NCBI GenBank assembly: GCA_044866195.1
Contig: JBIOTT010000024.1
Coordinates: 4,849-68,848 of the forward strand
Reading direction: 5' to 3'
DNA length: 64,000 nt
Source of the DNA: Gemmatimonadales bacterium
Lineage (GTDB): Bacteria > Gemmatimonadota > Gemmatimonadetes > Gemmatimonadales > GWC2-71-9
Made by a program: the position numbers and the translations under genes
Notes under the pieces: generated by a model
Seen by the model: only the letters and a program-made list of their open reading frames with translations
Databases searched by the model: none
What the model was told of the DNA's origin: nothing
In this document: in pieces, positions 14,840 through 64,000 of the stretch
How positions within the stretch are numbered: the first letter of the stretch is position 1
Layout: each line of letters starts with the position of its first letter

Positions 14840-14889
14840 GAATTGCTGATTAGCCCCTAGCATGGAATTGCTGATTGGCCCCTAGCATG
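14840..14889 (+). repeat. 25-bp tandem duplication containing a start codon
   Basis: gaattgctgattagcccctagcatg (14840-14864) is followed by gaattgctgattggcccctagcatg (14865-14889), with 1 mismatch. Confidence 0.9.
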
Positions 14890-15681
14890 GAAGGCAAGAT
14901 GGGCACCCACAGTGGGGTACCCCAGACTACATTGCCGGACTCTTGCGAGAGACCCCGCGCCTCTCTCGACGACCAGTTCCTCGCTTGGCGTCGACTGGGC
15001 GCCGTCCAAAAGGCTCAATCCATTATGAGATTGACCGAGCCTGGCCCAACTCTCGAGGCACATGCTTCGTCAGGGATTTCCGAGGTGATTGAAATAGGCG
15101 CCGGGACCGGAGCAATTCTGCAAGAGCTGTCCCCGAAACGACCCCATTGGAACCTGACAGCGGTCGACCTCGCGGAGGAGAACATTGCAGCGATCAGGCG
15201 GCTCCGCCTGCGGAACCTTAGAACGAGTCAGGTTGCTGACGCCGAGCACCTTCCTTTCCCAGACAAACGCTTCGACCTGGCAATACTATCCCATGTCATT
15301 GAGCATCTCCCGGATCCGGCCGCTGGCCTTTGCGAGGCCAGGCGCATCGCGCGTCTGCTGCTAATCGAAGTTCCGGTTGAGGGTACCCCGGTGCTCGACC
15401 TGGTCTGGTTCGTCCGCAAGCACCGTGGACGGAACCGCGTGCCCAATGACCTAGGGCACCTGTGGCACTACTCTGTACGTGAGTGGAACCGGGTCATCGC
15501 GGCAGCCGGGCTCACAATCATCGGACGGCTCCAATACTTGCTCACGCGCGAGGTCCTTCTCTTCGGCAAGTCCGGTCGTGCGCTGCAGCTGGCTCGAATC
15601 CGAGCCACTGGACAGTCGCTGTTCGGCACCAAGATCTGGGGGAATTTGGTGCACAGCCATTACGCTGTGCTAGCCACATGA
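14887..15681 (+). CDS. Class I SAM-dependent methyltransferase
   Basis: SAM motif VIEIGAGTGAIL, plus FDLAILSHVIEHLPDP. The start is taken at the second duplicated ATG and is uncertain. Confidence 0.75.
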   Translation: MEGKMGTHSGVPQTTLPDSCERPRASLDDQFLAWRRLGAVQKAQSIMRLTEPGPTLEAHASSGISEVIEIGAGTGAILQELSPKRPHWNLTAVDLAEENIAAIRRLRLRNLRTSQVADAEHLPFPDKRFDLAILSHVIEHLPDPAAGLCEARRIARLLLIEVPVEGTPVLDLVWFVRKHRGRNRVPNDLGHLWHYSVREWNRVIAAAGLTIIGRLQYLLTREVLLFGKSGRALQLARIRATGQSLFGTKIWGNLVHSHYAVLAT

Positions 15682-35897: not shown

Positions 35898-35903
35898 TTC
35901 TTA

Positions 35904-35985
35904 GAAAAAGCGTAAACGGTAAACGGTGAACGGGGGCTCCGATGATTCAAGGAGCCCCCGTTTACCGTTTACGCGGTTTCTTTTC
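35904..35985. terminator. Bidirectional intrinsic terminator between the ICL-family gene and hflX
   Basis: A 22-bp stem (35919-35940 pairs with 35951-35972, one G-U) with a 10-nt loop. It is preceded by agaaaaag and followed by ggtttcttttc. The arms are built from gtaaacg heptamers. Confidence 0.75.
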
Positions 35986-40645: not shown

Positions 40646-41605
40646 TCACCCGCCGTAGGGCACGCCGGCCGAGAGCGAGAGCAGCAGCTCCATGCGGGCC
40701 TGTGAAGGGGTGCGCGGCCCAGCCGGGACGACGCCCATGGACACGAGCCCCGCGCCGCCGCCCTCGAAGGCGTAGACCGGCGTGACCACGCCCGTGGGGC
40801 AGCGACTGGCAAGCACCACCGGCTTGCCCTCATCCAGCCAGCGTTGAATCGCCGGGATGGCGCCGGGGGGCAGGTTGCCGCTTCCGAAGGCCACGATCAC
40901 GACGCCGTCGTAGCGCGGCCGGGCCAGCTCGAGCATTTCTCCCTGGTCGCCGATCACCATGGGAACCAGGGCGACGCGCGGGCCGGAGGCCGCCAGGCGG
41001 GCGGCAGGCAGGCGGGCCGGCGCGCAGGCGGGCAGAGCGTACTCGACGCGGCCGCCTTGAACCGTCCCCAGGGCCACTCCGTGCGGGGCCGCAAAGGCGT
41101 CGAGCCGCATGGTGTCCGTCTTCACCGCCTCGTGTCCCGCGAAGACCTGCCCGGCGAACACCACGATGGCGCCGCGACCAGCGCTCCCTGGGCTCGCGAC
41201 CACTGCGGCCGCGTCCCGGAGATTGCGGGGACCATCCCAATCGGCGTCGCTGGATGTGCGCATCGCACCGGTGATCGCAACCGGGATGGCGGGGTCGAGC
41301 GTCCGCGCCAGCAGGTAGGCCGTTTCTTCTATCGTGTCGGTCCCATGGGTGATCACGATACCGCGCGGCCGATCCGGGTCTGCGGTCTGGATCTCGCGCA
41401 CCCGATTCCGCAGCGCCCAGAGGCGCTCCGGTCCCAGGTGCGCGGCCGGCACCCGGGCCCAGTTCTCGATCCGAAAGGGGGCGATCCGGTCGAGCCCCGG
41501 GATCCGGGCGACAAGTTGCTCGCCGTCGTGCGCGGGCACGTTCCCGCCGGCGGCCGGATCGTGGTGCATGGAGATCGTACCGCCGGTGAAGAGGAGATGA
41601 ATCAC
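40646..41605 (-). CDS. ansA: L-asparaginase (type I-like)
   Basis: FTGGTISM and ITHGTDTIEETAY signatures. GTG start at 41605 (GTGA overlap). Confidence 0.85.
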   Translation of the reverse strand: MIHLLFTGGTISMHHDPAAGGNVPAHDGEQLVARIPGLDRIAPFRIENWARVPAAHLGPERLWALRNRVREIQTADPDRPRGIVITHGTDTIEETAYLLARTLDPAIPVAITGAMRTSSDADWDGPRNLRDAAAVVASPGSAGRGAIVVFAGQVFAGHEAVKTDTMRLDAFAAPHGVALGTVQGGRVEYALPACAPARLPAARLAASGPRVALVPMVIGDQGEMLELARPRYDGVVIVAFGSGNLPPGAIPAIQRWLDEGKPVVLASRCPTGVVTPVYAFEGGGAGLVSMGVVPAGPRTPSQARMELLLSLSAGVPYGG

Positions 41606-42686: not shown

Positions 42687-45406
42687 CCGCCGTTGCCAAG
42701 CCAGGCTGCTACCACGGCAGGGGTCTGGGCCCGCGCATCCCCCAATCGAGCCGGATCGCCGGCGCCAGCCGATGCGAAGTGGGGCCGGCCGCCGCCCTTG
42801 CCGCCGCTGATGGCCGCGATCCGATTTACCAGATCTCCCGCCTTTCGTCCGGCGCTCACCAGATCCTCGCTCAGGGTGACGTGAATCGCGCCCCGACCCG
42901 CGGTGCCGAAGAGCACCAACACGGCGTTGCGCCGGCCCTCCCGAAACCGGTCGGCGATCTGACCCAGCTCATTCCGATCGTCGGTGGCGGTCTCCGCCAT
43001 GGTCAGCTGCACCTGATCCACCTGCAGAGTCTCGCCCTCGGCCGGGCCGGTCCCGCCGGACCGGCGGGCATCCTGGAGCCGCGCCTCGAGCCGCTGCCGG
43101 TCTTCGAGCAGTTGGTCGATCTTTCGCGCCAGGTGCTCCGGCTGGGCCTTGAGCCGCTCCGCCGCCTTGGCGATGCGGTCGTCGAGCTCCTGCAGCACGG
43201 CGTAGGCGGTTGGGCCGGTCACGGCCTCGATCCGCCGAACGCCGGCCTGAACCCCGCCCTGCCCCTTGAAGCGGAACAGGCCGACCTGACCGGTGCTGCG
43301 GACATGAGTGCCGCCGCACAGCTCGATCGAGTCGCCCATCTGCACCACCCGAACCACGTCGCCATACTTCTCGGTGAAGAATGCCATCGCGCCCAGGTCG
43401 AGCGCATCGCGGTACGGCATCTGCCGCGTGATGGTCTCGTAGTTGGCCCAGATCTGCTCGTTCACATCCCGCTCGATGGCGCGGAGCGTCTCCGGGTCGA
43501 TCGGCTCCTGATGCGTGAAGTCGAAGCGAAGCCGATCGGGCTCGACCAGCGAGCCAGCCTGCCGCACGTGGCCACCGAGATGCCGGCGCAAGGCCAGGTG
43601 GACGAGGTGAGTGGCGCTGTGGTTGCGCTCGATGTTGCGGCGGCGCGGAGTATCGACCATCGCCTCGACCGGGGTGGGATCGAACGACTCGCCGAAGCTG
43701 CCGCCGATCACCGTGCCCTTGGCCGGGTCCTTCCGCACACTGTCGACCTCGAGCGTCCAGCCGCTGCCGGCCACCGAGCCGGTGTCGCTGACCTGGCCGC
43801 CCGATTCCGCGTAGAACGGATTCTCCCGCAGCACGAGCTCGACCCGATCGCCCGCCTGGCGAAATGCCAGCAGGGCGGAGTCGGTCTGGGTCGTATCGTA
43901 CCCCACGAATTTCTGCTTGCCCCGCTTGAGCGTGCGCCAGGCGGTCGGATCCTTCGCGTGCACCGCAGGGCCGCGCGCCGGCTGCCGCCGGAACGCCCCG
44001 TCCTGCTCGACCGCCGCCGCATCCACTCCCACCGTGGCCTCCCGGCGCGCCGCACGGGAACGCTCCCGCTGCTCGGCGAGCGCGCGCTCGAACCCGGGCA
44101 GGTCGACGCGCACGCCCCGCTCGCCGGCGATGATCTCGGTGAGATCGATGGGGAAGCCGTAGGTATCGTAAAGCTTGAACGCCTCCTCCCCGGCGATCGT
44201 TTCGGCGCCGGTGGCGAAGATTTCGTCCAGCCGCTTGAGCCCGCCGTCGATCGTCTCGAGAAACCGTTCCTCTTCTGCCCGGGTGGTGTCGTGGAGATAT
44301 CCGGCCTGGCCCACCAGCTCGGGATAGATGGCGCCCATCTCGCGCACGACCACGTCGGTGAGCGGGGCGAGGGTGGGCTCGCGCCGGCCCAGCAGCCACG
44401 CGTGCCGGACGGCCCGGCGCAGGATCCGCCGCAGGACGTAGCCGCGGCCTTCGTTGCTGGGGTAGATCCCGTCGGCCAGCAGGAAGCTCACCGCCCGCGC
44501 GTGGTCCGCCAGCACCCGATACGAGGTGCTGCGGGCCCGGGCGTCGACGTTGGGATCGTCGTCATGGACGTAGTCGTACGGCCGCCCAACCAGCTCGCCC
44601 ACCCGATCGAGCAGCGGGCGGAACAGGTCGGTGTGAAAGTTGTCGTCTTCCCCCTGCATCACCGCCGCGATCCGCTCGAGACCGGCTCCGGTGTCGACCG
44701 AGGGCCGGGGCAGCGGAGTGAGCACCCCATCCAGAGCGCGATCGAACTGCATGAAGACGAGATTCCAGATCTCGAGAAACCGGCCCTCCTCGGCCAAACG
44801 CTCGAAATCTGCCTGGGCGACGACCTCCTCTGTCCGCCCGTCCGCCTGTCCGCCTGTCCGCCTGTCGAGGTCGACGTAGATCTCCGTACTCGGGCCACAG
44901 GGACCGGTGTCGCCCATCTGCCAGAAGTTGTCTTTGTCGCCCAATCCGTAGATCCGGTGGTCGGGAAGGCCCGCGATCTCACGCCAGAGCGCGCGGGCCT
45001 CCTGATCGCTGTGGTGCACCGTGACCCGCAGGCGGTCGGGGGAGAGGCCGAGCCCATCCTTGCCGGTGACGAGCTCCCAGGCGAACGCGATGGCGTCGCG
45101 CTTGAAGTAGTCGCCGAAGGAAAAGTTCCCCAGCATCTCGAAAAAAGTGTGGTGCCGCTTGGTGTGGCCGACCTGCTCGAGGTCGTTGTGCTTGCCCCCC
45201 GCGCGGACCACCTTCTGGCAGGTGGCCGCCCGGACATACTCGCGCCGCTCCTGTCCGAGAAACACACGCTTGAACTGCACCATGCCGGCGTTGGTGAACA
45301 GCAGCGTCGGGTCGTCCTTGGGTTCCAGGGACGAAGAGGGCACCTTGCGGTGCCCCCGGGCGACGAAGAAGTCGAGGAAAAGCCGGCGGATGTCAGCGGA
45401 ACGCAT
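42683..45406 (-). CDS. alaS: Alanine--tRNA ligase
   Basis: MRSADIRRLFLDFFVARGHRKVPSSSL, FTNAGMVQFK, GDTGPCGP, and the editing-domain HSATHL...CGGTH. Confidence 0.95.
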   Translation of the reverse strand: MRSADIRRLFLDFFVARGHRKVPSSSLEPKDDPTLLFTNAGMVQFKRVFLGQERREYVRAATCQKVVRAGGKHNDLEQVGHTKRHHTFFEMLGNFSFGDYFKRDAIAFAWELVTGKDGLGLSPDRLRVTVHHSDQEARALWREIAGLPDHRIYGLGDKDNFWQMGDTGPCGPSTEIYVDLDRRTGGQADGRTEEVVAQADFERLAEEGRFLEIWNLVFMQFDRALDGVLTPLPRPSVDTGAGLERIAAVMQGEDDNFHTDLFRPLLDRVGELVGRPYDYVHDDDPNVDARARSTSYRVLADHARAVSFLLADGIYPSNEGRGYVLRRILRRAVRHAWLLGRREPTLAPLTDVVVREMGAIYPELVGQAGYLHDTTRAEEERFLETIDGGLKRLDEIFATGAETIAGEEAFKLYDTYGFPIDLTEIIAGERGVRVDLPGFERALAEQRERSRAARREATVGVDAAAVEQDGAFRRQPARGPAVHAKDPTAWRTLKRGKQKFVGYDTTQTDSALLAFRQAGDRVELVLRENPFYAESGGQVSDTGSVAGSGWTLEVDSVRKDPAKGTVIGGSFGESFDPTPVEAMVDTPRRRNIERNHSATHLVHLALRRHLGGHVRQAGSLVEPDRLRFDFTHQEPIDPETLRAIERDVNEQIWANYETITRQMPYRDALDLGAMAFFTEKYGDVVRVVQMGDSIELCGGTHVRSTGQVGLFRFKGQGGVQAGVRRIEAVTGPTAYAVLQELDDRIAKAAERLKAQPEHLARKIDQLLEDRQRLEARLQDARRSGGTGPAEGETLQVDQVQLTMAETATDDRNELGQIADRFREGRRNAVLVLFGTAGRGAIHVTLSEDLVSAGRKAGDLVNRIAAISGGKGGGRPHFASAGAGDPARLGDARAQTPAVVAAWLGNGG
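44831..44866. repeat. Tandem octamers (t/c)gtccgcc x4 inside alaS
   Basis: tgtccgcc cgtccgcc tgtccgcc tgtccgcc tgtc. On the coding strand this reads DRRTGGQADGRT, in a variable catalytic-domain loop. Confidence 0.85.
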
Positions 45407-45432
45407 TGGGGGAAAATATAGGCGGGGAAGCT

Positions 45433-45570
45433 AGCGGGCAGCTAATCCGCTATCCGCTATCCGCTAGCCGCCAAGGCACGAGGATCTCGGCCGCTCGGAG
45501 ATGCCTGCGCGCGAACGGATAGCAGCGGATGGCGGATAGCGGATAGCCGATAGCGGGGTAGCGGCCAGCT
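45433..45570. repeat. Long imperfect inverted repeat built from atccgct/agcggat heptamers (recX-alaS intergenic)
   Basis: Arms 45433-45472 and 45531-45570 give ~34 of 40 positions paired by hand. The 58-nt loop contains a nested hairpin (ggca..atctc/gagatgcc). The recX stop codon lies in the right arm. Confidence 0.8.
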
Positions 45571-46186
45571 ACCCAAGCACCCCTGCCACTGCCTCGAGCG
45601 CCTCCCGGCCGCCGAACCCTCGCCGCGCGAGATAGGCCAGCAGTCGGCGACGCTTCACCGGCCGCGGCAGGCCCTCCAGCTGGGCGGCACGCTTGGCGGC
45701 GAGTGCCGCCGGAAGCGCGCGGCGGTCGGTGTCGGCGGGCCACTGCTCGGCGATGGCCGTATCGATGCAGCCGCGGGCAACCCCCAACATGCTCAGGTCT
45801 CGGGCCAGGCGGGCCGGCCCGCGACCGCGCTCGGCTCGCGTGGCCACGTAGTGGCGGGCGAACGCCAAGTCGTCCAGCAGCCCCGCACGCTCCGCCCGGG
45901 TCAATGCAGCTTCGACCGCCTCGGCAGCCAGGCCCCGCCGCTGCAAGCGCCGGCCCAGATCCACCCGTGCGTGGGGACGGCGCTCCAGCGCGCGGAGCAC
46001 GGTGCGATAGGCGGCTTCGATATCGGCGGCCCGGGCCAGCCGCTCACTGGCCGGCCCATCGAGCGCCTGGCCCGATCCGAGCCCCGCAACCGCATCGCGA
46101 TCGACCGTGGCGAACGGCCGGCCCTCTACCAGCACCCGCACGCTGCCCGGGCGGCGAGGATCGGCCTCGATCGCGGTGACGATCAC
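45569..46186 (-). CDS. recX: Recombination regulator RecX
   Basis: RecX helical repeats ([29 protein letters not shown]...FARHYV). GTG start at 46186 (GTGA overlap with the recA stop). Confidence 0.85.
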
Positions 46187-47311: not shown

Positions 47312-47353
47312 GAGGTTTCTACTGGCTGATTTTGCACCATAATGGGTTTTTCA

Positions 47354-47461
47354 CCACGGAGGCACGGAGGCACAGAGCACGATCGATGTGGCTTCGCGAG
47401 CCGCGATCTCAAGCCCCAGGCCACCACCCCAAACCACCTCTGTGCCTCCGTGCCTCCGTGG
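47354..47461. repeat. 108-bp element with perfect 24-bp terminal inverted repeats (MITE-like or I-shaped terminator)
   Basis: ccacggaggcacggaggcacagag (47354-47377) is the exact reverse complement of 47438-47461, with a 60-nt spacer. TTTTCA is present immediately on both sides (47348-47353 and 47462-47467). Confidence 0.7.
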
Positions 47462-47503
47462 TTTTCAGTTTCTGCCTTTTCTGCCTTTGCGGCTGACGCT
47501 TTG

Positions 47504-57165: not shown

Positions 57166-59481
57166 ATGACGCGGGCTGGCGAATGCATCCGACTCTGGGC
57201 CGCGCTGCGAACCGCGCCCATGGCTGTGGTGACCCTCGCTGTCCTGGGCTGCCCCGGGCCTCTTCCGGGACCGAGCGGCCCCATCCAACCTGCCGGCCAA
57301 GCCGGCGCCTCCCCGATGGACCGATTCGTAGACTCTCTGCTGGCGCGGATGACCCTCGAGGAGAAGCTGGGCCAGCTGACTCAGTCGACCGGACCGGGCA
57401 GCAACACCGGCCCCGCCGCGCGGGCAGGTACCGACGCCGACATCCGGGCCGGCCGGGTCGGTTCCTTCCTCGGCGTTCGCGGTGCGGCGTACACCCGCGA
57501 GCTCCAGCAGATTGCGGTCGAGGAGAGCCGGCTCGGCATTCCGCTCCTCTTCGCCGACGACGTCATCCACGGTTACCGAACGATCTTCCCGGTGCCACTG
57601 GCCGAGGCATCCACGTGGGATCCGGCCGCGGTGGAGCGTTCGGCCCGGATCGCCGCAGTGGAGGCCACCGCCAACGGGGTCCATTGGACCTACGCGCCGA
57701 TGGTCGATATCGCACGCGACCCCCGCTGGGGTCGGGTGGTGGAAGGGACGGGGGAGGACCCCTACCTCTGCTCGGTCATGGCCGCAGCGCGGGTGCGTGG
57801 CTTCCAGAGCCCCGATCTCTCGTCCGACAGCACCCTCCTCGCTACCGCCAAGCATTTCGCGGCTTATGGCGCTGCTGAAGGCGGGCGCGATTACAACACG
57901 GCAGACCTCTCGGACCGGACTCTTCACGAGATCTACCTCCCACCCTTCAAGGCCGCCATCGACGCTGGCGCCCAATCGGTGATGGCGGCGTTCAACGAGA
58001 TCGCCGGCCTGCCGATGCACGCGAACCGGCCCTTGATTCGCGGCGTGCTCCGCGACGCCTGGGGTTTCGACGGAGTGGTGGTCAGCGACTACACCGGGAT
58101 CCTCGAGCTGATCCGCCACGGGATCGCCGCCGACAGCGCCGCGGCGGGCCGGCTGGCGCTCACCGCCGGGGTCGACGTCGACATGGTGAGCCGGATTTAT
58201 CTGAGCCAGCTCCCACACCTCGTGCATGGGGGAGCGGTGGCCGAGTCCCTGGTGAACCAGGCCGTGCGACGAATACTGCGGGCGAAGTATCGGCTCGGGC
58301 TCTTCACCGACCCGTACCGCTACAGCGATCCGGCACGGGAGCGGGCTCGCACGCTCACGTCGGAGCACCTGGCAGCGGCGCGCGAAATGGCCCGGAAATC
58401 CATCGTACTGCTCAAGAATTCGGGGCAGACGCTTCCGCTCTCGAAGGGTCTCGGTACCCTGGCGGTCATCGGCCCCCTGGCTGACGACGCGGCCTCCACG
58501 CTGGGCCCTTGGGCCGGGGCAGGGCGGCCCGAAGACGCCGTGACGGTGCTCGCTGGGATCCGGCGAGCCGTTCCCGCCGGAACCCGCGTGCTCTACGCCA
58601 CGGGCGCCGAGACGCGGGGTGAAGACACGACCGGCTTCGCGGAGGCCGTCCGGGTCGCGTGGCAGGCGGACGCAGTGGTTCTGGTGCTAGGGGAAGACCG
58701 GGACATGAGCGGGGAGGCCAACAATCGCACCTCGCTCGACCTCCCGGGTGTGCAGCAGCAGCTGGCCGAACGGGTGCAGGCGACCGGGAAGCCGGTGGTC
58801 GTGGTGCTGATGAACGGCCGCCCGCTGTCCACTCCGTGGCTCGATGCCCAGGTTCCGGCGATCATCGAGGCATGGTACCTGGGTGTGCAGACTGGCCCAG
58901 CGGTCGCCGACGTGCTGTTCGGCGACTACAACCCTGGCGGCAAGCTCCCGATAACCGTGCCGCGCAGCGTGGGCCAGGTCCCCATCTACTACAACCACAA
59001 GCCGACCGGGCGTCCGCCCGAGGAACGGGAGCGGTACAGCTCCAAGTACCTCGACGAGCCCTGGACCCCGCTCTACCCCTTCGGCTACGGTTTGAGCTAC
59101 ACGGCTTTCGCGTACGACAGCCTCCGCCTGAGCACCGCGCGGCTTCGTCGATCCGATTCGGTCGAGGTGAGCGTCAGGGTGACCAACACCGGCCGGCACG
59201 CGGGCGACGAGGTGGTCCAGCTCTATGTTCGCGATGAGGTCGCGAGCAGCACCCGGCCGGTGCTGGCGCTACGCCGGTTCGAGCGGATCACGCTGGCACC
59301 GGGAGAGGCACGCACGGTGGCGTTCACGCTGCGCGCCGACGACTTCGCGTTTCCCGGTCCCGATTTGGAGCCCCTTGTCGAGCCGGGCTTCTTCACCGTG
59401 GGCGTGGGGACCAGCTCGGCAGACCTGCAGCAAGCGCGTTTCGAGCTGGTGAGTGAGTTATCGCCCCGGGCCGCGCCGTGA
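57166..59481 (+). CDS. bglX: GH3 beta-glucosidase (BglX-like), secreted or lipoprotein
   Basis: MTLEEKLGQL, GIPLLFADDVIHG, DPRWGRVVEGTGEDP, GVVVSDY, and the C-terminal fibronectin-like domain pattern EVVQLYVRD. Confidence 0.9.
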   Translation: MTRAGECIRLWAALRTAPMAVVTLAVLGCPGPLPGPSGPIQPAGQAGASPMDRFVDSLLARMTLEEKLGQLTQSTGPGSNTGPAARAGTDADIRAGRVGSFLGVRGAAYTRELQQIAVEESRLGIPLLFADDVIHGYRTIFPVPLAEASTWDPAAVERSARIAAVEATANGVHWTYAPMVDIARDPRWGRVVEGTGEDPYLCSVMAAARVRGFQSPDLSSDSTLLATAKHFAAYGAAEGGRDYNTADLSDRTLHEIYLPPFKAAIDAGAQSVMAAFNEIAGLPMHANRPLIRGVLRDAWGFDGVVVSDYTGILELIRHGIAADSAAAGRLALTAGVDVDMVSRIYLSQLPHLVHGGAVAESLVNQAVRRILRAKYRLGLFTDPYRYSDPARERARTLTSEHLAAAREMARKSIVLLKNSGQTLPLSKGLGTLAVIGPLADDAASTLGPWAGAGRPEDAVTVLAGIRRAVPAGTRVLYATGAETRGEDTTGFAEAVRVAWQADAVVLVLGEDRDMSGEANNRTSLDLPGVQQQLAERVQATGKPVVVVLMNGRPLSTPWLDAQVPAIIEAWYLGVQTGPAVADVLFGDYNPGGKLPITVPRSVGQVPIYYNHKPTGRPPEERERYSSKYLDEPWTPLYPFGYGLSYTAFAYDSLRLSTARLRRSDSVEVSVRVTNTGRHAGDEVVQLYVRDEVASSTRPVLALRRFERITLAPGEARTVAFTLRADDFAFPGPDLEPLVEPGFFTVGVGTSSADLQQARFELVSELSPRAAP

Positions 59482-59671
59482 GGCGATGCGCCCGAGAGCG
59501 GGGGTCGATGGCTGCCATGATCGGTGCCTGGTGCCCGCGTCGACCGGCGTGAGCCAGTTCTGGGTCGGATTGAACGCGTCACGAAAACCGTAGATCCCAG
59601 AGCAGGTGACCGAGGTCGTGGCACAACTGCCGCACCGCGACGGGACCGCCCGTCCCCATCGCTTGCGGGCT

Positions 59672-61945
59672 CTAGCTGCAGTACTCCTCGACCTGGTCGA
59701 TCCCGATCCGGACGTCGCGCGGCTTGCTCCCGTTCTGGGGACCGAGAATCCCTGCCTCTTCCAGCTGATCCATCAGGCGGGCCGCGCGGCCGTAGCCGAT
59801 GCCGAGCTTGCGTTGGAGGAGCGAGGTGGAGCCGCCCTGGTTCTGCACGCAGGCGATCGCGGCGTCCTTGAAGAGGGGGTCTCGCTCGGACGCGTCGAAG
59901 GGTTCGCCGCCGGCCGCTTCGCCCGCTTCGGTGTCCGGCACCTCGTCCAGGATGTTGGTCTCCACGGCCTCCGTGGCCCCGCGCTCCTTCTGTTCCCGCA
60001 CCCACTCGCGATACCGCTTCATAAGCTTCTCGGTCTCCTCGGTGCCGATGTAGGCCCCCTGAAGGCGCATCGGCTCGCTCTTCCCCGGCTCGAGGAACAG
60101 CATATCGCCTTTGCCAAGCAGGGCCTCGGCCCCGTTCTGGTCGAGAATGGTGCGGCTATCCACCTTCTGCGCGACCCGGAAGGCGATCCGGCTGGGGAAG
60201 TTGGCCTTGATCAGCCCGGTGATGACGTTCACCGAGGGTCGCTGGGTCGCCACGATCAGGTGCAGGCCCACGGCCCGCGCCTTCTGCGCCAGTCGCGCGA
60301 GGTGCAATTCCACCTCGGCTTGCACGGTCATCATGAGATCGGCCAGCTCGTCCACCACCACGACGATCAGGGGCAGCTTGCCCTGGGTATAGACCTCGTC
60401 CTGCGACGGCTGGGGCGGCGTGTCCGGCGATTCCGCCGCGATTTCGATGAGCGTGATCTTCTTGGGCACGGGGTTCCTGAGCGGCTTGCCGTCGGCAACC
60501 TTGCGGTTGAAGTCGGTGACGTTGCGCGCGCCGTTCGCCTCGAGCAGCGCGTACCGCCGCTCCATCTCCCCAACCGCCCACTTGAGAACTACGGCGGCCT
60601 CCTTGTAGTTCGTCACCACCGGGTGGCGCAGGTGCGGCAGGCCGTTGTACATCGAGAGCTCGACCATCTTGGGATCGATCATCAGAAGCCGCAGGTCTTC
60701 CTTGTGCTGGTATTGGTACAGCAGCGATGTGATGATCGCGTTGATCCCGACCGATTTGCCGGTGCCGGTGGCGCCCGCGATGAGGAGGTGCGGCATCTTC
60801 CCCAGGTCGGCGATGACGGGACGGCCCTCGAGATCGAGGCCGAGCGCGACGGGGAGAAGGCGATCTTCGCCCTGCCAGGTCTCGTCCTCCAGCAGCTCGC
60901 GAAGCATGACCACCCGCGATTTGGGGTTGGGCACTTCGACGCCGACCATGTCCCGTCCCGGAATCCGAGCCACCCGGATCGAGCGCGCACTCATCTTGAG
61001 CGCGAGATCGTCGGCCAGGGTGACCAGCCTATTCATCTTGACGCCGGGCCGGAGGCGAACGCCGTACTGCGTGACCACCGGCCCGGTGGTGCGCCCGGCG
61101 ACATCGCCCTCGACTTTGAACTCGGCCAGCGTAGCCTCGAGTCGTTCCTGCAGCGAGTCGAGCTCGCTCTCGCCGGCATCGACCGCCTTCCCGGAGGGAG
61201 GATCGAGGAGCTCGACGTCCCACACGGCGGACAGGCGGACAGGCGGACGGGCGGGCAGGGCGGCCCGGCGGACGGGCGGACGGGCGGACGGAGACTTCGG
61301 TGTACTAAAGCCAGCTTGGACGCCGGGAGCGCCGTCCGCCTGCCCGCCTGCCCGCCTGCCCGCCTGGTCCGCCTGTCCGCCTGTCCGCCCGTCCGCCCTG
61401 TCCGCCTTGTCCGCCTGTCCGCCGGTCCGCTTGCCGGCCCGTCCGCCCGTCCGCCCGTCCGCCTCCAACCGCTGCAGCGGATGCCACGCGAAGGTGAGCA
61501 GGGTGAGCGCCGAGAGTGCGAGAAATCCCAGCAGCACGGCCCCTGCGAGGCCGACCCGGTCCGAGACCACCTCCGCCAGCATGCCGGGGAGCAGTCCCGC
61601 GAGTCGGGCCGGCAGGGCGCGCTGCTCCACGTCCGGGACCAGATCCAGGTAGCTCACCTGGGTCACCACGCCGACGAGATAGGGCAGCAGCAAGCTCAGT
61701 CCGACCATCAGCGCCGCCGCTCGCTTCATGTCGAGCCGGCCGAGCCGCTCGAATCCTGCGAGCGCGAGGCCCAGGCCTAGCAACGGGAGTCCGATCGCGC
61801 CGGCGCCGAGCGCGTGCCAGAGCGCGTGGCCGATCCAGCGCCCGACCGGGCCGGTGAGCGCAAACGGGAGTAGCGTGAGCCCGACGAAGACGCCGAGCAC
61901 CAGCGCCGTAATGGCGCCGAGCCGGCGGCGGGAGTCGGCGGTCAT
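59672..61945 (-). CDS. ftsK: DNA translocase FtsK/SpoIIIE
   Basis: N-terminal TM domain. Walker A AGATGTGKSV, plus VVVVDELADLMM, IVATQRPSVNVITG, and a C-terminal gamma (winged-helix) domain STSLLQRKLGIGYGRAARLMDQLE. Confidence 0.93.
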   Translation of the reverse strand: MTADSRRRLGAITALVLGVFVGLTLLPFALTGPVGRWIGHALWHALGAGAIGLPLLGLGLALAGFERLGRLDMKRAAALMVGLSLLLPYLVGVVTQVSYLDLVPDVEQRALPARLAGLLPGMLAEVVSDRVGLAGAVLLGFLALSALTLLTFAWHPLQRLEADGRTGGRAGKRTGGQADKADRADGRTGGQADQAGRRAGGQADGAPGVQAGFSTPKSPSARPPVRRAALPARPPVRLSAVWDVELLDPPSGKAVDAGESELDSLQERLEATLAEFKVEGDVAGRTTGPVVTQYGVRLRPGVKMNRLVTLADDLALKMSARSIRVARIPGRDMVGVEVPNPKSRVVMLRELLEDETWQGEDRLLPVALGLDLEGRPVIADLGKMPHLLIAGATGTGKSVGINAIITSLLYQYQHKEDLRLLMIDPKMVELSMYNGLPHLRHPVVTNYKEAAVVLKWAVGEMERRYALLEANGARNVTDFNRKVADGKPLRNPVPKKITLIEIAAESPDTPPQPSQDEVYTQGKLPLIVVVVDELADLMMTVQAEVELHLARLAQKARAVGLHLIVATQRPSVNVITGLIKANFPSRIAFRVAQKVDSRTILDQNGAEALLGKGDMLFLEPGKSEPMRLQGAYIGTEETEKLMKRYREWVREQKERGATEAVETNILDEVPDTEAGEAAGGEPFDASERDPLFKDAAIACVQNQGGSTSLLQRKLGIGYGRAARLMDQLEEAGILGPQNGSKPRDVRIGIDQVEEYCS
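61226..61464. repeat. Inverted arrays of GGCGGAC(A/G) octamers inside the ftsK linker
   Basis: About 8 units of ggcggac(a/g) at 61226-61291, a 41-nt spacer, then about 16 units of the reverse complement (c/t)gtccgcc at 61333-61464. Confidence 0.9.
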
Positions 61946-62724
61946 AACAGCTGGGGTTGGGGCTGTGGCGACGCGGGCTGAAGCTGCCGCTCCGGCGCGA
62001 CGGTCACCCGGCGCTCGTGAAAGTAAGGCAGCACGGGATAGGCATCGAGCCGGCCGGCATCGAGCACATCGGCTCGGAACCCGAGCCGGTTGAGCTCACG
62101 CCCGGCCCGGCTGTACGAAAGCGGCCGTTGCCAGTTGTCGCGGTAGCGGCGGACCAGGTCCAGGCTCGCCAGCGCCGCATCGTTGAGCCCCTTGCGGGGC
62201 TTGGGGCCGCCGAGAGCGGCTGCAGCGAGTCGGCCGGCGCAGTAGGCGTCATCCAGGCTGAACGCGGTCTCCCGGCCGGCGCAGAGAATCAGCACCTCGC
62301 GGTTTTGCTCCAGCGCGTCCCGGGCCCGCTCTCCGGCGACGGTGAGGTTCGCGGCCGCCGCGACATACACCGTCGCGGCTCCTTGGGCCGCTAACAGCGC
62401 CTTGGTCCCGTTGGTCGTGGTCACGATGATCGTCTTTCCCTTCACCGCCTGCTCGGTCATCTCGAGCGGGCTGTTGCCCAGCGCGAAACCCGGGATGCGC
62501 ACGCAATTCTTCTCGCCGGCCAGCAGCACGTCGGCGCTGCCGATGGTCTGGGCCAGGCGGAGCGCTTCCTCGGTGGAGGCGACCGGGATGAGCGCGCGCG
62601 CACCGTGATGGAGCGCGGCGCACATCACGGTAGTGGCGCGGAGGATGTCGATCACGAAGATCGTGCGCCCCTGCACATCCGAGGGCCCGAGGCCCACCGG
62701 GGAGAACCAGACGTGGAGCTTCAT
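61942..62724 (-). CDS. comB: 2-phosphosulfolactate phosphatase family protein (ComB-like)
   Basis: VIDILRATT, GEKNCVRIPGFALGNSP and LDDAYCAG. Start ATG 62724 shares 1 nt with the accC stop. Confidence 0.8.
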   Translation of the reverse strand: MKLHVWFSPVGLGPSDVQGRTIFVIDILRATTVMCAALHHGARALIPVASTEEALRLAQTIGSADVLLAGEKNCVRIPGFALGNSPLEMTEQAVKGKTIIVTTTNGTKALLAAQGAATVYVAAAANLTVAGERARDALEQNREVLILCAGRETAFSLDDAYCAGRLAAAALGGPKPRKGLNDAALASLDLVRRYRDNWQRPLSYSRAGRELNRLGFRADVLDAGRLDAYPVLPYFHERRVTVAPERQLQPASPQPQPQLL

Positions 62725-64000
62725 CAGTCCGGCTGCAGCAGGTGCGACTCGCGCTCGAGAAACCGGGTGTCGACCTTGCCCGCGGCGAAGTCGGGGTGCC
62801 GAATGACCCGGGCCAGAAACGGGATGGTCGTCGTGATGCCCTCGAGGATGAAGCTGTCGAGCGCCTGTCCCATTCGGGAGAGCGCTTCCTGCCGGGTGTT
62901 GCCGTGCACGATCACCTTGGCGAGCAGCGAATCGTAGTAGGGCGGCACGGTGTAGCCGGCATACACATGCGTGTCCACCCGCACGCCGGGACCCCCGGGC
63001 GGATGGTACGCCGTGATCAGTCCGGGGGAGGGCTGGAAGTTGCGGTAGGGATCTTCGGCGTTGATCCGGCACTCGATGGCGTGGCCCCGAAGCCGGGTGC
63101 CGTCGCCGCGGTAGCTGATCGGGTCGCCGGCAGCGATCCGGATCTGCTCCTTCACCAGATCGAAGCTCGCCACCATCTCGGTCACCGGGTGCTCCACCTG
63201 GATCCGGGTGTTCATCTCCATGAAGTAGAACTTACCATCGGTGTCGAGCAGGAACTCGACCGTGCCCGCGCCCTGATAGCCGATGTTGGAGGCGAGGGCG
63301 ACGGCTGCCTCGCCCATGCGGCGCCGGAGGCCGTGGTCCAGCGCCGGGCTGGGGCTCTCCTCCACCAGCTTCTGATGGCGGCGCTGGACCGAGCAATCGC
63401 GCTCGCCCAGGTGGACCACCTTCCCGTGGACATCGCCCAACACCTGGATCTCGACGTGACGGGGGCGCTCGAGATACTTCTCGACGTAGACCGCGCCGTT
63501 GCCGAAGGCAGCCAGCGCCTCGTTCTGGGCCAGGCCGAACAACTGGGAGAACTGCTCCAGATCCTGTGCGATGCGCATCCCCTTCCCGCCCCCGCCGGCC
63601 GTCGCCTTGATGATGACGGGAGGCCCGATCTCCTCGGCAAACCGCAGGGCCTCGTCCGGATCTTCGATCGTGCCGGGCGAGCCGGGCACGGTGGGAACCT
63701 CGGCTTCCTGGGCCAGCTTGCGGGCTGTCGCCTTGTCGCCCATGAGCCGAATCTGCTCGCCGGTCGGGCCGACGAACGTGATGTTCGATGCCCGGCAGGT
63801 GTCGGCAAACTCGGCATTCTCGGCCAGAAACCCATAGCCGGGATGGATCGCGTCGGCACCGGTGATCTCCGCCGCGGCGATTAGATTCGGGATCTTGAGG
63901 TAGGAGAGCCGGCCGGGTGGCGGGCCGATGCACACGTCGTCGTCGGCAAAGCGGACGTGCAGCGACTCCCGGTCGGCCTCGCTGTAGACGGCCACCGTCT
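62724..64000 (-). CDS. accC: Acetyl-CoA carboxylase biotin carboxylase subunit; 5' end beyond the right window edge
   Basis: [54 protein letters not shown]. The family N-terminus (about 40 aa) is missing from the window. Confidence 0.93.

Follow-up and report, generated by a model that had tools for sequence, protein, structure and literature searches.

We analysed a 64,000-nucleotide (nt) stretch of a Gemmatimonadales bacterium genome (contig JBIOTT010000024.1, positions 4,849 to 68,848 of the forward strand; called the window below), through which alone the source genome was viewed, and detected that the linker of the core division protein FtsK encoded there is built from two opposed tandem arrays of the octamer GGCGGACR. 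The arrays fill the entire linker and stay in frame. We suggest, with slightly better than even confidence, that they are a convergent pair of long simple sequence repeats (SSR) with an 8-nt unit, driven by slippage, self-matching between the two arms and tolerated as a disordered FtsK linker. The role of the element in ftsK is most likely that of tolerated spacer sequence, not of a switch. An original prediction, made from the DNA letters, had described the arrays as a potential long cruciform in an essential gene that could drive slippage, hairpin-mediated deletion or frameshift switching, or could simply indicate that a repeat found genome-wide has colonised a low-complexity linker which tolerates it. 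This last reading, offered as a fallback, is the best supported, considering the dispersal of the arrays and their in-frame presence in loops and linkers of unrelated proteins.

The repeat element in the FtsK linker

The ftsK coding sequence (CDS) occupies 59672..61945 on the minus strand and encodes 757 amino acids (aa), according to the list of open reading frames (ORFs), the Pfam domains and a protein match. The product is a 100% match to one NCBI protein, and its named homologs are FtsK proteins of Gemmatimonadales; the bacterium itself is represented by metagenome assemblies. Pfam detected FtsK_alpha at aa 244-340, the FtsK_SpoIIIE motor at aa 348-572 and FtsK_gamma at aa 687-747. These three domains, together with the linker position of the arrays, bear out the gene name and the location proposed originally. 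The N-terminal membrane domain (aa 1-160; 61466..61945, minus strand) has four hydrophobic segments, the last of which stops at aa 155, and its C-terminal end, FAWHPLQRLE, is conserved across all FtsK relatives compared. The array begins at codon 161. The linker, aa 161-240 (80 aa; nt 61226-61465), is exactly the repeat element and nothing else, and the element stops directly before the conserved VWDV..LLDPP.

On the coding strand, the G-rich arm (G-arm; 61333..61464, minus strand) has about 16 GGCGGACR-type units and encodes ADGRTGGRAGKRTGGQADKADRADGRTGGQADQAGRRAGGQADG. According to the unit parse, it includes GGCGGGCA variants and irregular 7- and 9-nt units, which would fit a history of frame-restoring changes. 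A unique spacer of 41 nt (61292..61332, minus strand), encoding approximately APGVQAGFSTPKS, separates it from the C-rich arm (C-arm; 61226..61291, minus strand), which has about 8 YGTCCGCC units and encodes PSARPPVRRAALPARPPVRLSA. The spacer is not conserved among relatives, and no exact match to it was found in a metagenome scan. With period 8, Tandem Repeats Finder (TRF) detected an array of GGCGGACG at 61226-61291 (8.1 copies) and one of its reverse complement at 61330-61464 (16.6 copies); exact matches to GGCGGACR number 6 in the 61226-61291 array and 10 in the longer one. The layout read initially, about 24 octamers in opposed arrays of about 8 and about 16 units with 41 nt between, was recovered by TRF, by exact matching and by the unit parse.

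The best-pairing arms, 61222-61291 and 61332-61401, are 70 nt each and 83% complementary, with 40 nt between them. RNA folding of the element gave -198.4 kcal/mol versus -161.3 +/- 5.8 kcal/mol for shuffled sequences (z = -6.4; 0 of 200 shuffles as good) and DNA folding gave z = -5.3 versus shuffles, so the potential for a long hairpin holds, with a fold far more stable than those of the shuffles. No intrinsic terminator (a GC-rich stem-loop with a U tract) was found at 59400-62200, in a scan that allows loops of 3-8 nt and does not score long-loop hairpins themselves, and Rfam 15 gave 0 matches at the gathering score in the whole window.

The encoded peptides, ...ADGRTGGRAGKRTGGQADK... and ...SARPPVRRAALPARPPVRLSA, have the 8-aa period that had been read earlier for both arrays. 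Because 8 and 3 have no common factor, every frame gives one cyclic 8-residue peptide without stops, and since this cyclic peptide is common to all frames, the total length modulo 3 is the sole constraint. The absence of stops in all six frames was considered as a special property of the unit and rejected, since it is found in 73% of random octamers of matching composition. Simulated slips of +/-1 or +/-2 units led to products of 210-306 aa, all of which retained aa 1-160.

Turnover and absence of the arrays in relatives

The FtsK linker is ~66-83 aa long across relatives. Among 120 FtsK homologs (743-768 residues), most have ordinary Lys/Glu/Pro/Ala-rich linkers of equal length without arrays. 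The closest relatives have smaller GGCGGACR arrays at the matching place, differing in copy number, unit variants and spacers; the copy numbers come from short-read assemblies of repeats and may be inexact. Over the linker, relatives L002 and L121 have 91% identity and are set apart by a single clean gap of 24 nt, which corresponds to exactly three units and agrees with the rule, stated in the original prediction, that only three-unit gains or losses preserve the frame. Strains L001 and L147 have flanks that are 99-100% identical, and about 70 nt of the G-array is scrambled between them by substitutions and by indels of 1, 2 and 9 nt. Both comparisons support slippage; no hairpin-mediated deletion was observed among the relatives. 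Array copy number and unit sequence change fast between relatives, with in-frame changes persisting, and many relatives are without arrays.

L127 and L133 also have flanks that are 99-100% identical on both sides, and their linkers of about 215 nt are unalignable, both arms having another unit. Such a difference points to recombinational replacement of the allele, to very rapid turnover or to chimeric assembly. The replaced linker also has a diverged non-repeat tail that resembles L125 and L142. In a rough tree of the membrane domain (120 residues), the array-free L119 and the decayed L120 nest among array-bearing relatives, and the unit classes are mixed within a clade.

A coding SSR with a unit that is not a multiple of 3, as expected of a contingency locus, is present (8-nt unit, from codon 161). 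Out-of-frame alleles were not found among the ~15 array-bearing ftsK alleles seen in independent assemblies; all are in frame, and the proposed frameshift switching is not supported.

Matched arms built from different units

A metagenome scan that used the conserved coding flank as its key supplied further ftsK linkers. The slot 0-4 codons after HPLQRLE holds inverted pairs of differing units in ftsK lineages that are deeply diverged. We detected pairs of GGCGGACR (G-arm) with YGTCCGCC (C-arm), of GGCGGGCA with TGCCCGCC, of GGCGGAAC with GTTCCGCC, of GGGAAGGA or GGGAACGC with TCCTTCCC or CGTTCCC, and of GCGGGGCM with KGCCCCGC. In a complementarity matrix of 7-mers covering four classes, each G-arm fits C-arms far better within its class than across classes, and array-free linkers give background only. 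According to this comparison, the arms are complementary within each lineage though the unit differs between lineages.

The peptides differ wholly between unit classes (GGRADGRT, GKEGRREG, AGQRGSGA). C-arms have 3.8-4.1 units in 8 of 12 ftsK lineages and G-arms 3-16, counts that are biased by detection thresholds. The G-arms of GGGAAGGA units in L133 and L142 contain a repeated Shine-Dalgarno-like AAGGAGG in the CDS, right after the membrane domain. The possibility that one repeat unit per lineage colonises ftsK was rejected, as the same contigs bear other locus-specific units.

Dispersal of GGCGGACR arrays across genomes

When one genome per bacterial species was scanned for three units in tandem, at least 115 array loci were detected, 68 of them in Gemmatimonadota, 11 in Bacteroidota and 36 in others (mainly Streptomyces and Kitasatospora); these and the following counts hold among the matches listed, and proportions are indicative only. 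Just one of these loci is ftsK. There are several arrays per Gemmatimonadota genome. Most arrays are one-sided, lying in intergenic regions or at gene ends, and about a third are paired. At about 22 loci other than ftsK, a G-array is followed by 18-127 nt (mostly 38-72) and a C-array. Altogether about 27 G-then-C pairs of the GGCGGACR unit were found and 0 in the reverse order, the order being identical when read from either strand. The spacers of the paired loci are unrelated to one another and often hold a compact GC hairpin and a T run. Among arrays that follow a stop codon by no more than 60 nt, 28 of 33 have their G-rich strand in the sense orientation; 23 of these 28 start between -2 and +5 nt from the stop.

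These features place the arrays in the class of G-rich long SSRs: the unit is a head-to-tail G-rich 6-9-mer (TRF period 8 in ftsK), copies are many and dispersed with a non-coding bias (at least 68 Gemmatimonadota loci), convergent pairs are frequent, and the dispersed arrays have sense-strand G-rich post-stop placement, the ftsK copy itself being intragenic.

Several side observations concern the wider family. Nine Bacteroidota metagenome-assembled genomes (MAGs) of 46-51% GC (L031, L048, L058, L061, L077, L097, L108, L110, L118) carry long one-sided post-stop arrays with the units GGCGGACR, AGCGGACA, GGTGGACG and AGTGGACA, which adjoin arrays of other 7-8-mers. The GGCGGACR unit family is shared across phyla (Gemmatimonadota and the lower-GC Bacteroidota). 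L089 (Gemmatimonadaceae, 8 kb) is very dense, with at least 6 octamer arrays of up to 13.5 copies, and its pairs, 275-456 nt apart, bracket small ORFs. Viral contig L123 (1800-2100) has adjacent (GCCCT)13, (GGCGGACA)10 and CTATCGGA-type arrays after a terminator-like hairpin, and viral contig L122 (1225-1568) has about 340 nt of mixed CGTCCGCC and CGTCCACC units.

In-frame arrays in other proteins

Coding status was judged by flank-only criteria and Pfam, as calls based on GC content at third codon positions are unreliable near arrays. Under strict criteria, about 10% of the arrays lie in well-supported CDS, always in variable segments. We found in-frame arrays in the linker between two aldehyde dehydrogenase (ALDH) domains in three species, in the N-terminal linker of a Kgd-like protein, in a GH94 domain loop, in a loop and in a juxtamembrane linker of Ser/Thr kinase, and in a loop of the alanyl-tRNA synthetase (AlaRS) encoded in the window.

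The ALDH-ALDH protein of about 810 aa (L101, 2783-5203, minus strand, with orthologs in L065 and L024) has a G-array/spacer/C-array linker between its domains, and may be a gene fusion that arose from read-through of a stop-free intergenic repeat element. In the Ser/Thr kinase of L109 (5126-7876, minus strand), a G-type array lies in the beta4-beta5 loop and, about 650 nt further downstream, the juxtamembrane linker contains a C-type array, which gives a long-range inverted array pair within one gene.

Other arrays and features in the window

The GGCGGACR word has 40 matches in the window, 20 in the ftsK and alaS arrays and 20 elsewhere versus 18.7 expected. Because the word is at chance level outside the arrays, the dispersed entity is the tandem array and not the word. 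The claim of a genome-wide repeat therefore stands for tandem arrays and fails for the octamer as such. A KOPS- or Chi-like octamer guiding FtsK was rejected on the same grounds, the matches outside the arrays being at chance level without strand bias (9 plus, 11 minus).

The alaS array (44830..44866, minus strand) is one-sided and in the frame of alaS, with about 4.6 GGCGGACR copies by TRF, in a gene assigned by the Pfam domain tRNA-synt_2c. It encodes RRTGGQADGRT in a variable loop of the AlaRS catalytic domain. The AlaRS ortholog of L119 has a different Gly/Arg/Ala-rich loop of equal length (TGAGRERAGAGG), which may be a decayed array.

Paired-array structures number 4 in the window versus 0-4 (mean about 0.5) in 30 first-order shuffles. 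Given this range, the count is only modestly unusual by itself, while the real arrays are far longer than minimal chance ones. Besides ftsK, an intergenic paired-array hairpin, (CTATCCG)n, spacer and (CGGATAG)n, spans 45432..45571 from the recX stop to the alaS start and begins right at the recX stop codon. In L119 (15090-15221; about 85% protein identity) this hairpin has kept the heptamer arms, and the spacer is unrelated. The same heptamer pair occurs in L002 (693-855), with 4.7 and 10.4 copies around a classical terminator in the tatA-surA gap. Upstream of recA, an intergenic hairpin (47353..47462) consists of (CACGGAGG)3, 60 nt and (CCTCCGTG)3; its arms of 25 nt are 100% complementary and a T-rich tail follows, picked up by the terminator scan at 47448. 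It is absent from the orthologous site of L119. Between the convergent genes of an isocitrate-lyase-family protein and hflX, a further intergenic hairpin (35903..35981) is formed by (GTAAACG)3, GGGGCTCC, a loop, GGAGCCCC and (CGTTTAC)2, flanked by A- and T-runs, with the T tail detected by the terminator scan (35964).

A degenerate GGCGGGCA-type G-rich array at 40975-41035 (TRF period 8, 7.9 copies, 71% matches) is covered by long ORFs on both strands. At 14840-14892, a 25-nt direct repeat, GAATTGCTGATTAGCCCCTAGCATG (2.1 copies, 96% identical), lies in a relatively AT-rich stretch and could function as an operator or promoter.

The ORF upstream of ftsK (61942-63072, minus strand) encodes a member of the 2-phosphosulpholactate phosphatase family listed with 376 aa. 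Its start is probably internal to the listed ORF, since homologs have about 260 aa and the Pfam domain covers only aa 133-353. Its stop overlaps the ftsK start (ATGA), which suggests translational coupling. The gene order accC-comB-ftsK is kept in relatives.

Discussion

The reading that we favour, a tolerated convergent SSR pair, would proceed as follows. The arrays would lengthen and shorten by replication slippage, and the second arm would be made from the first and kept matched through switching of strand or template inside the inverted repeat, in the manner of quasipalindrome correction. Template-switch mutation at quasipalindromes is established in E. coli (PMC7202029), where it likewise copies one arm of an inverted repeat onto the other and yields complementarity without selection; it was demonstrated there for short reporter quasipalindromes, whereas its action on tandem-array arms and in Gemmatimonadota is inferred. 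The linker would tolerate the arrays if length and flexibility are its only needs, with the G-rich arm giving a Gly/Arg/Ala/Asp/Thr-rich peptide and the C-rich arm a Pro/Ser/Ala/Arg-rich one. Units that are stop-free in all frames would be necessary for this toleration and are not special. The hairpin potential in ftsK would be a by-product with a modulatory effect at most. Tolerance of the linker is suggested by the in-frame arrays in variable segments of several unrelated proteins, and dispensability of the arrays by the ordinary linkers of most of the 120 homologs and by the nesting of L119 and L120.

Several points weigh against this reading. Every array-bearing ftsK has both arms, versus about one third of the dispersed arrays among the matches listed. 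A fixed slot with at least four unit classes and matched arms is what hairpin selection would give too. At the recX-alaS site, the retention of the arms and not of the spacer looks like constraint on the arms.

These same points are in favour of the main rival, which we regard as possible and rather unlikely, namely that a nucleic-acid structure (an mRNA hairpin, or a sense-strand G-rich structure or R-loop) is selected where the sequence coding for the membrane domain meets that of the linker. Once the membrane domain has been synthesised, the structure would retard or attenuate transcription or translation, with an effect, for example, on membrane insertion or on the ratio of short to full-length protein, and the intergenic copies would serve as terminators, insulators or 3'-end stabilisers. 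In addition to the single slot, the constant presence of both arms, their co-variation over at least four unit classes and the conserved recX-alaS arms, this would be consistent with the G-arm beginning right after the last hydrophobic segment, with the intergenic sense-strand G-arrays, which begin at stop codons and in many cases surround terminator-like hairpins that have T tails, and with the Shine-Dalgarno-like AAGGAGG in the L133 and L142 units. However, the element is missing from most relatives, nested ones included, and its arms are often unequal (16 versus 8 units here), imperfect or decaying (L120, L147, L142). The ftsK copy has no terminator tail and no Rfam family, and the architecture recurs in unrelated proteins at loops that share no logic. 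Sporadic distribution, decay and unequal arms argue against a strong requirement for the structure.

In a more specific form, which we put forward tentatively and with low confidence, a self-renewing repeat hairpin would be conserved and selected at the membrane-domain/linker junction of Gemmatimonadota ftsK, its unit turning over and its arms staying complementary, and would tune full-length versus division-only FtsK. If this is true, the tuning would occur via pausing, attenuation, cleavage or reversible frameshifting, and paired tandem-array arms would be a lineage-specific route to evolvable terminators and attenuators and would also give rise to new protein linkers and to gene fusions of the ALDH-ALDH kind.

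Selection of the repeat peptides themselves, as charged Gly/Arg-rich and Pro-rich segments that bind division partners, with the DNA symmetry incidental, is improbable. Such a role would suit the Pro/Gln-rich FtsK linkers of other bacteria, which bind division proteins, and the linker length of ~66-83 aa that is kept across the relatives. Nevertheless, the peptide sequences are wholly different between unit classes, most relatives have non-repetitive linkers, identical arrays are mostly non-coding, and arm complementarity is a property at the DNA level.

A phase-variable switch is similarly improbable. Here a slip of 1-2 units would produce a truncated, membrane-only FtsK without the DNA pump, and a reverse slip would restore the full protein. 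The arrays are long and demonstrably unstable, with a unit length indivisible by 3, and the simulated slipped products of 210-306 aa keep aa 1-160. In E. coli, the N-terminal membrane domain is the essential part of FtsK and alone supports division. The concern that ftsK is an essential gene is thus no bar to a switch, because slips of 1-2 units leave the membrane domain intact. What argues against the switch is that all independently assembled array-bearing ftsK alleles are in frame, that close relatives differ by exactly 3 units, and that AlaRS and other enzymes, whose loss by switching would be harmful, also contain the arrays in frame; housekeeping genes are also atypical contingency loci (PMC3315296, PMC4692102).

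A mobile element of the miniature inverted-repeat transposable element (MITE), REPIN or foldback type, with octamer terminal inverted repeats and inserted in ftsK, has very little probability left. The family is dispersed, with inverted ends and a convergent arrangement throughout, and the foldback transposons of eukaryotes have comparable tandem-repeat inverted ends. We found no conserved core and no target-site duplications; the spacers are unrelated between loci and often hold a local terminator, linkers and loops are equally long with or without arrays, most arrays are one-sided, and many loci have other locus-specific units. Unrelated spacers and the absence of net insertion largely refute this explanation.

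An assembly artefact, with short-read assemblers mis-joining or mis-counting repeats, is hardly credible as the origin of the element: many arrays do lie at MAG contig ends, which suggests that assemblers are troubled by them, and errors could be present in the unit counts and in the scrambled alleles L147 and L133, yet the ftsK ORF is unbroken and has the usual length, the imperfections of the units are non-random, analogous arrays occupy the same site in assemblies made independently from different samples, L076 and L127 from two sources have an identical linker, and arrays occur inside Mb-scale contigs (e.g., L014, L049, L065, L101).

Comparison with known repeat systems

The closest described class consists of SSRs with G-rich heptamers in Xanthomonas (GGGAATC) and Nostoc (GGGGAYT), which have no known function, and Xanthomonas genomes have 70-75 convergent pairs each, with stem-loop potential (Rehm et al. 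2015, PMC4692102). As in these heptamers, the arrays described here are dispersed G-rich tandem arrays of 7-8 nt units, mostly non-coding, of variable copy number at conserved sites and located up to 50 nt after stops on the sense strand (PMC4692102). The published arrays commonly have about four units (PMC4692102), a preference that the C-arms of the ftsK lineages may share. In contrast to them, the unit here is 8 nt long with GG tracts only, which would imply a weaker G-quadruplex potential; many locus-specific units coexist; and the pair is in frame as a linker, while the published class is under-represented in CDS (PMC4692102). Co-variation of the arms between lineages, seen here, is not described for the Xanthomonas and Nostoc repeats (PMC4692102). 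Because convergent 7-nt array pairs are documented in Xanthomonas (PMC4692102), the inverted layout is less unusual than was claimed originally for inverted arrays in a coding region; the in-frame use as a linker appears new.

More distant analogues, to which the REP elements below also belong, are the cyanobacterial short tandemly repeated repetitive (STRR) heptamers and the TAACTGA repeats of Beggiatoaceae, Cyanobacteria and Bacteroidetes (PMC4679880). These two are similar in their 7-nt tandem units, intergenic and patchy occurrence, occasional copies in ORFs and lack of an established mechanism. They are mostly just upstream of starts, direct (with one indirect case) and AT-rich (PMC4679880), whereas the arrays here are post-stop, GC-rich and often paired. 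Contingency loci (PMC3315296) share a non-multiple-of-three SSR near the 5' third of the gene and length change between strains. The present case differs from them (PMC3315296) in the housekeeping host, in having all alleles in frame, in encoding a functional linker and in a unit of 8 nt, not 1-5 nt. Repetitive extragenic palindromic (REP) elements of proteobacteria, with the related BIME and REPIN, are likewise dispersed, extragenic, located at gene 3' ends and often inverted doublets forming hairpins. However, REP elements are imperfect palindromes of 20-40 nt with a conserved sequence, mobilised by RAYT transposases, while the arms here are tandem arrays of 7-8 nt units with local spacers and no known transposase link.

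In the library searched, no paper contained the GGCGGACR repeat string. Precedent exists for the repeat class and for its convergent pairing; the in-frame use as the whole linker of a core division protein appears new, as does the lineage-by-lineage co-variation of the two arms.

Taken together, these results add Gemmatimonadota, and apparently Bacteroidota, to the groups that have long 7-8 nt repeats of the kind described in Xanthomonas and cyanobacteria. Such arrays interrupt short-read assemblies and can lead to wrongly called gene lengths or frameshifts in Gemmatimonadota MAGs. The co-variation of the arms provides a natural experiment on whether selection of structure or templated copying is behind the complementarity of inverted repeats, and the in-frame copies indicate that such repeats can be domesticated as linkers in core genes, as in FtsK, AlaRS, the Kgd-like protein and the ALDH fusion proteins.

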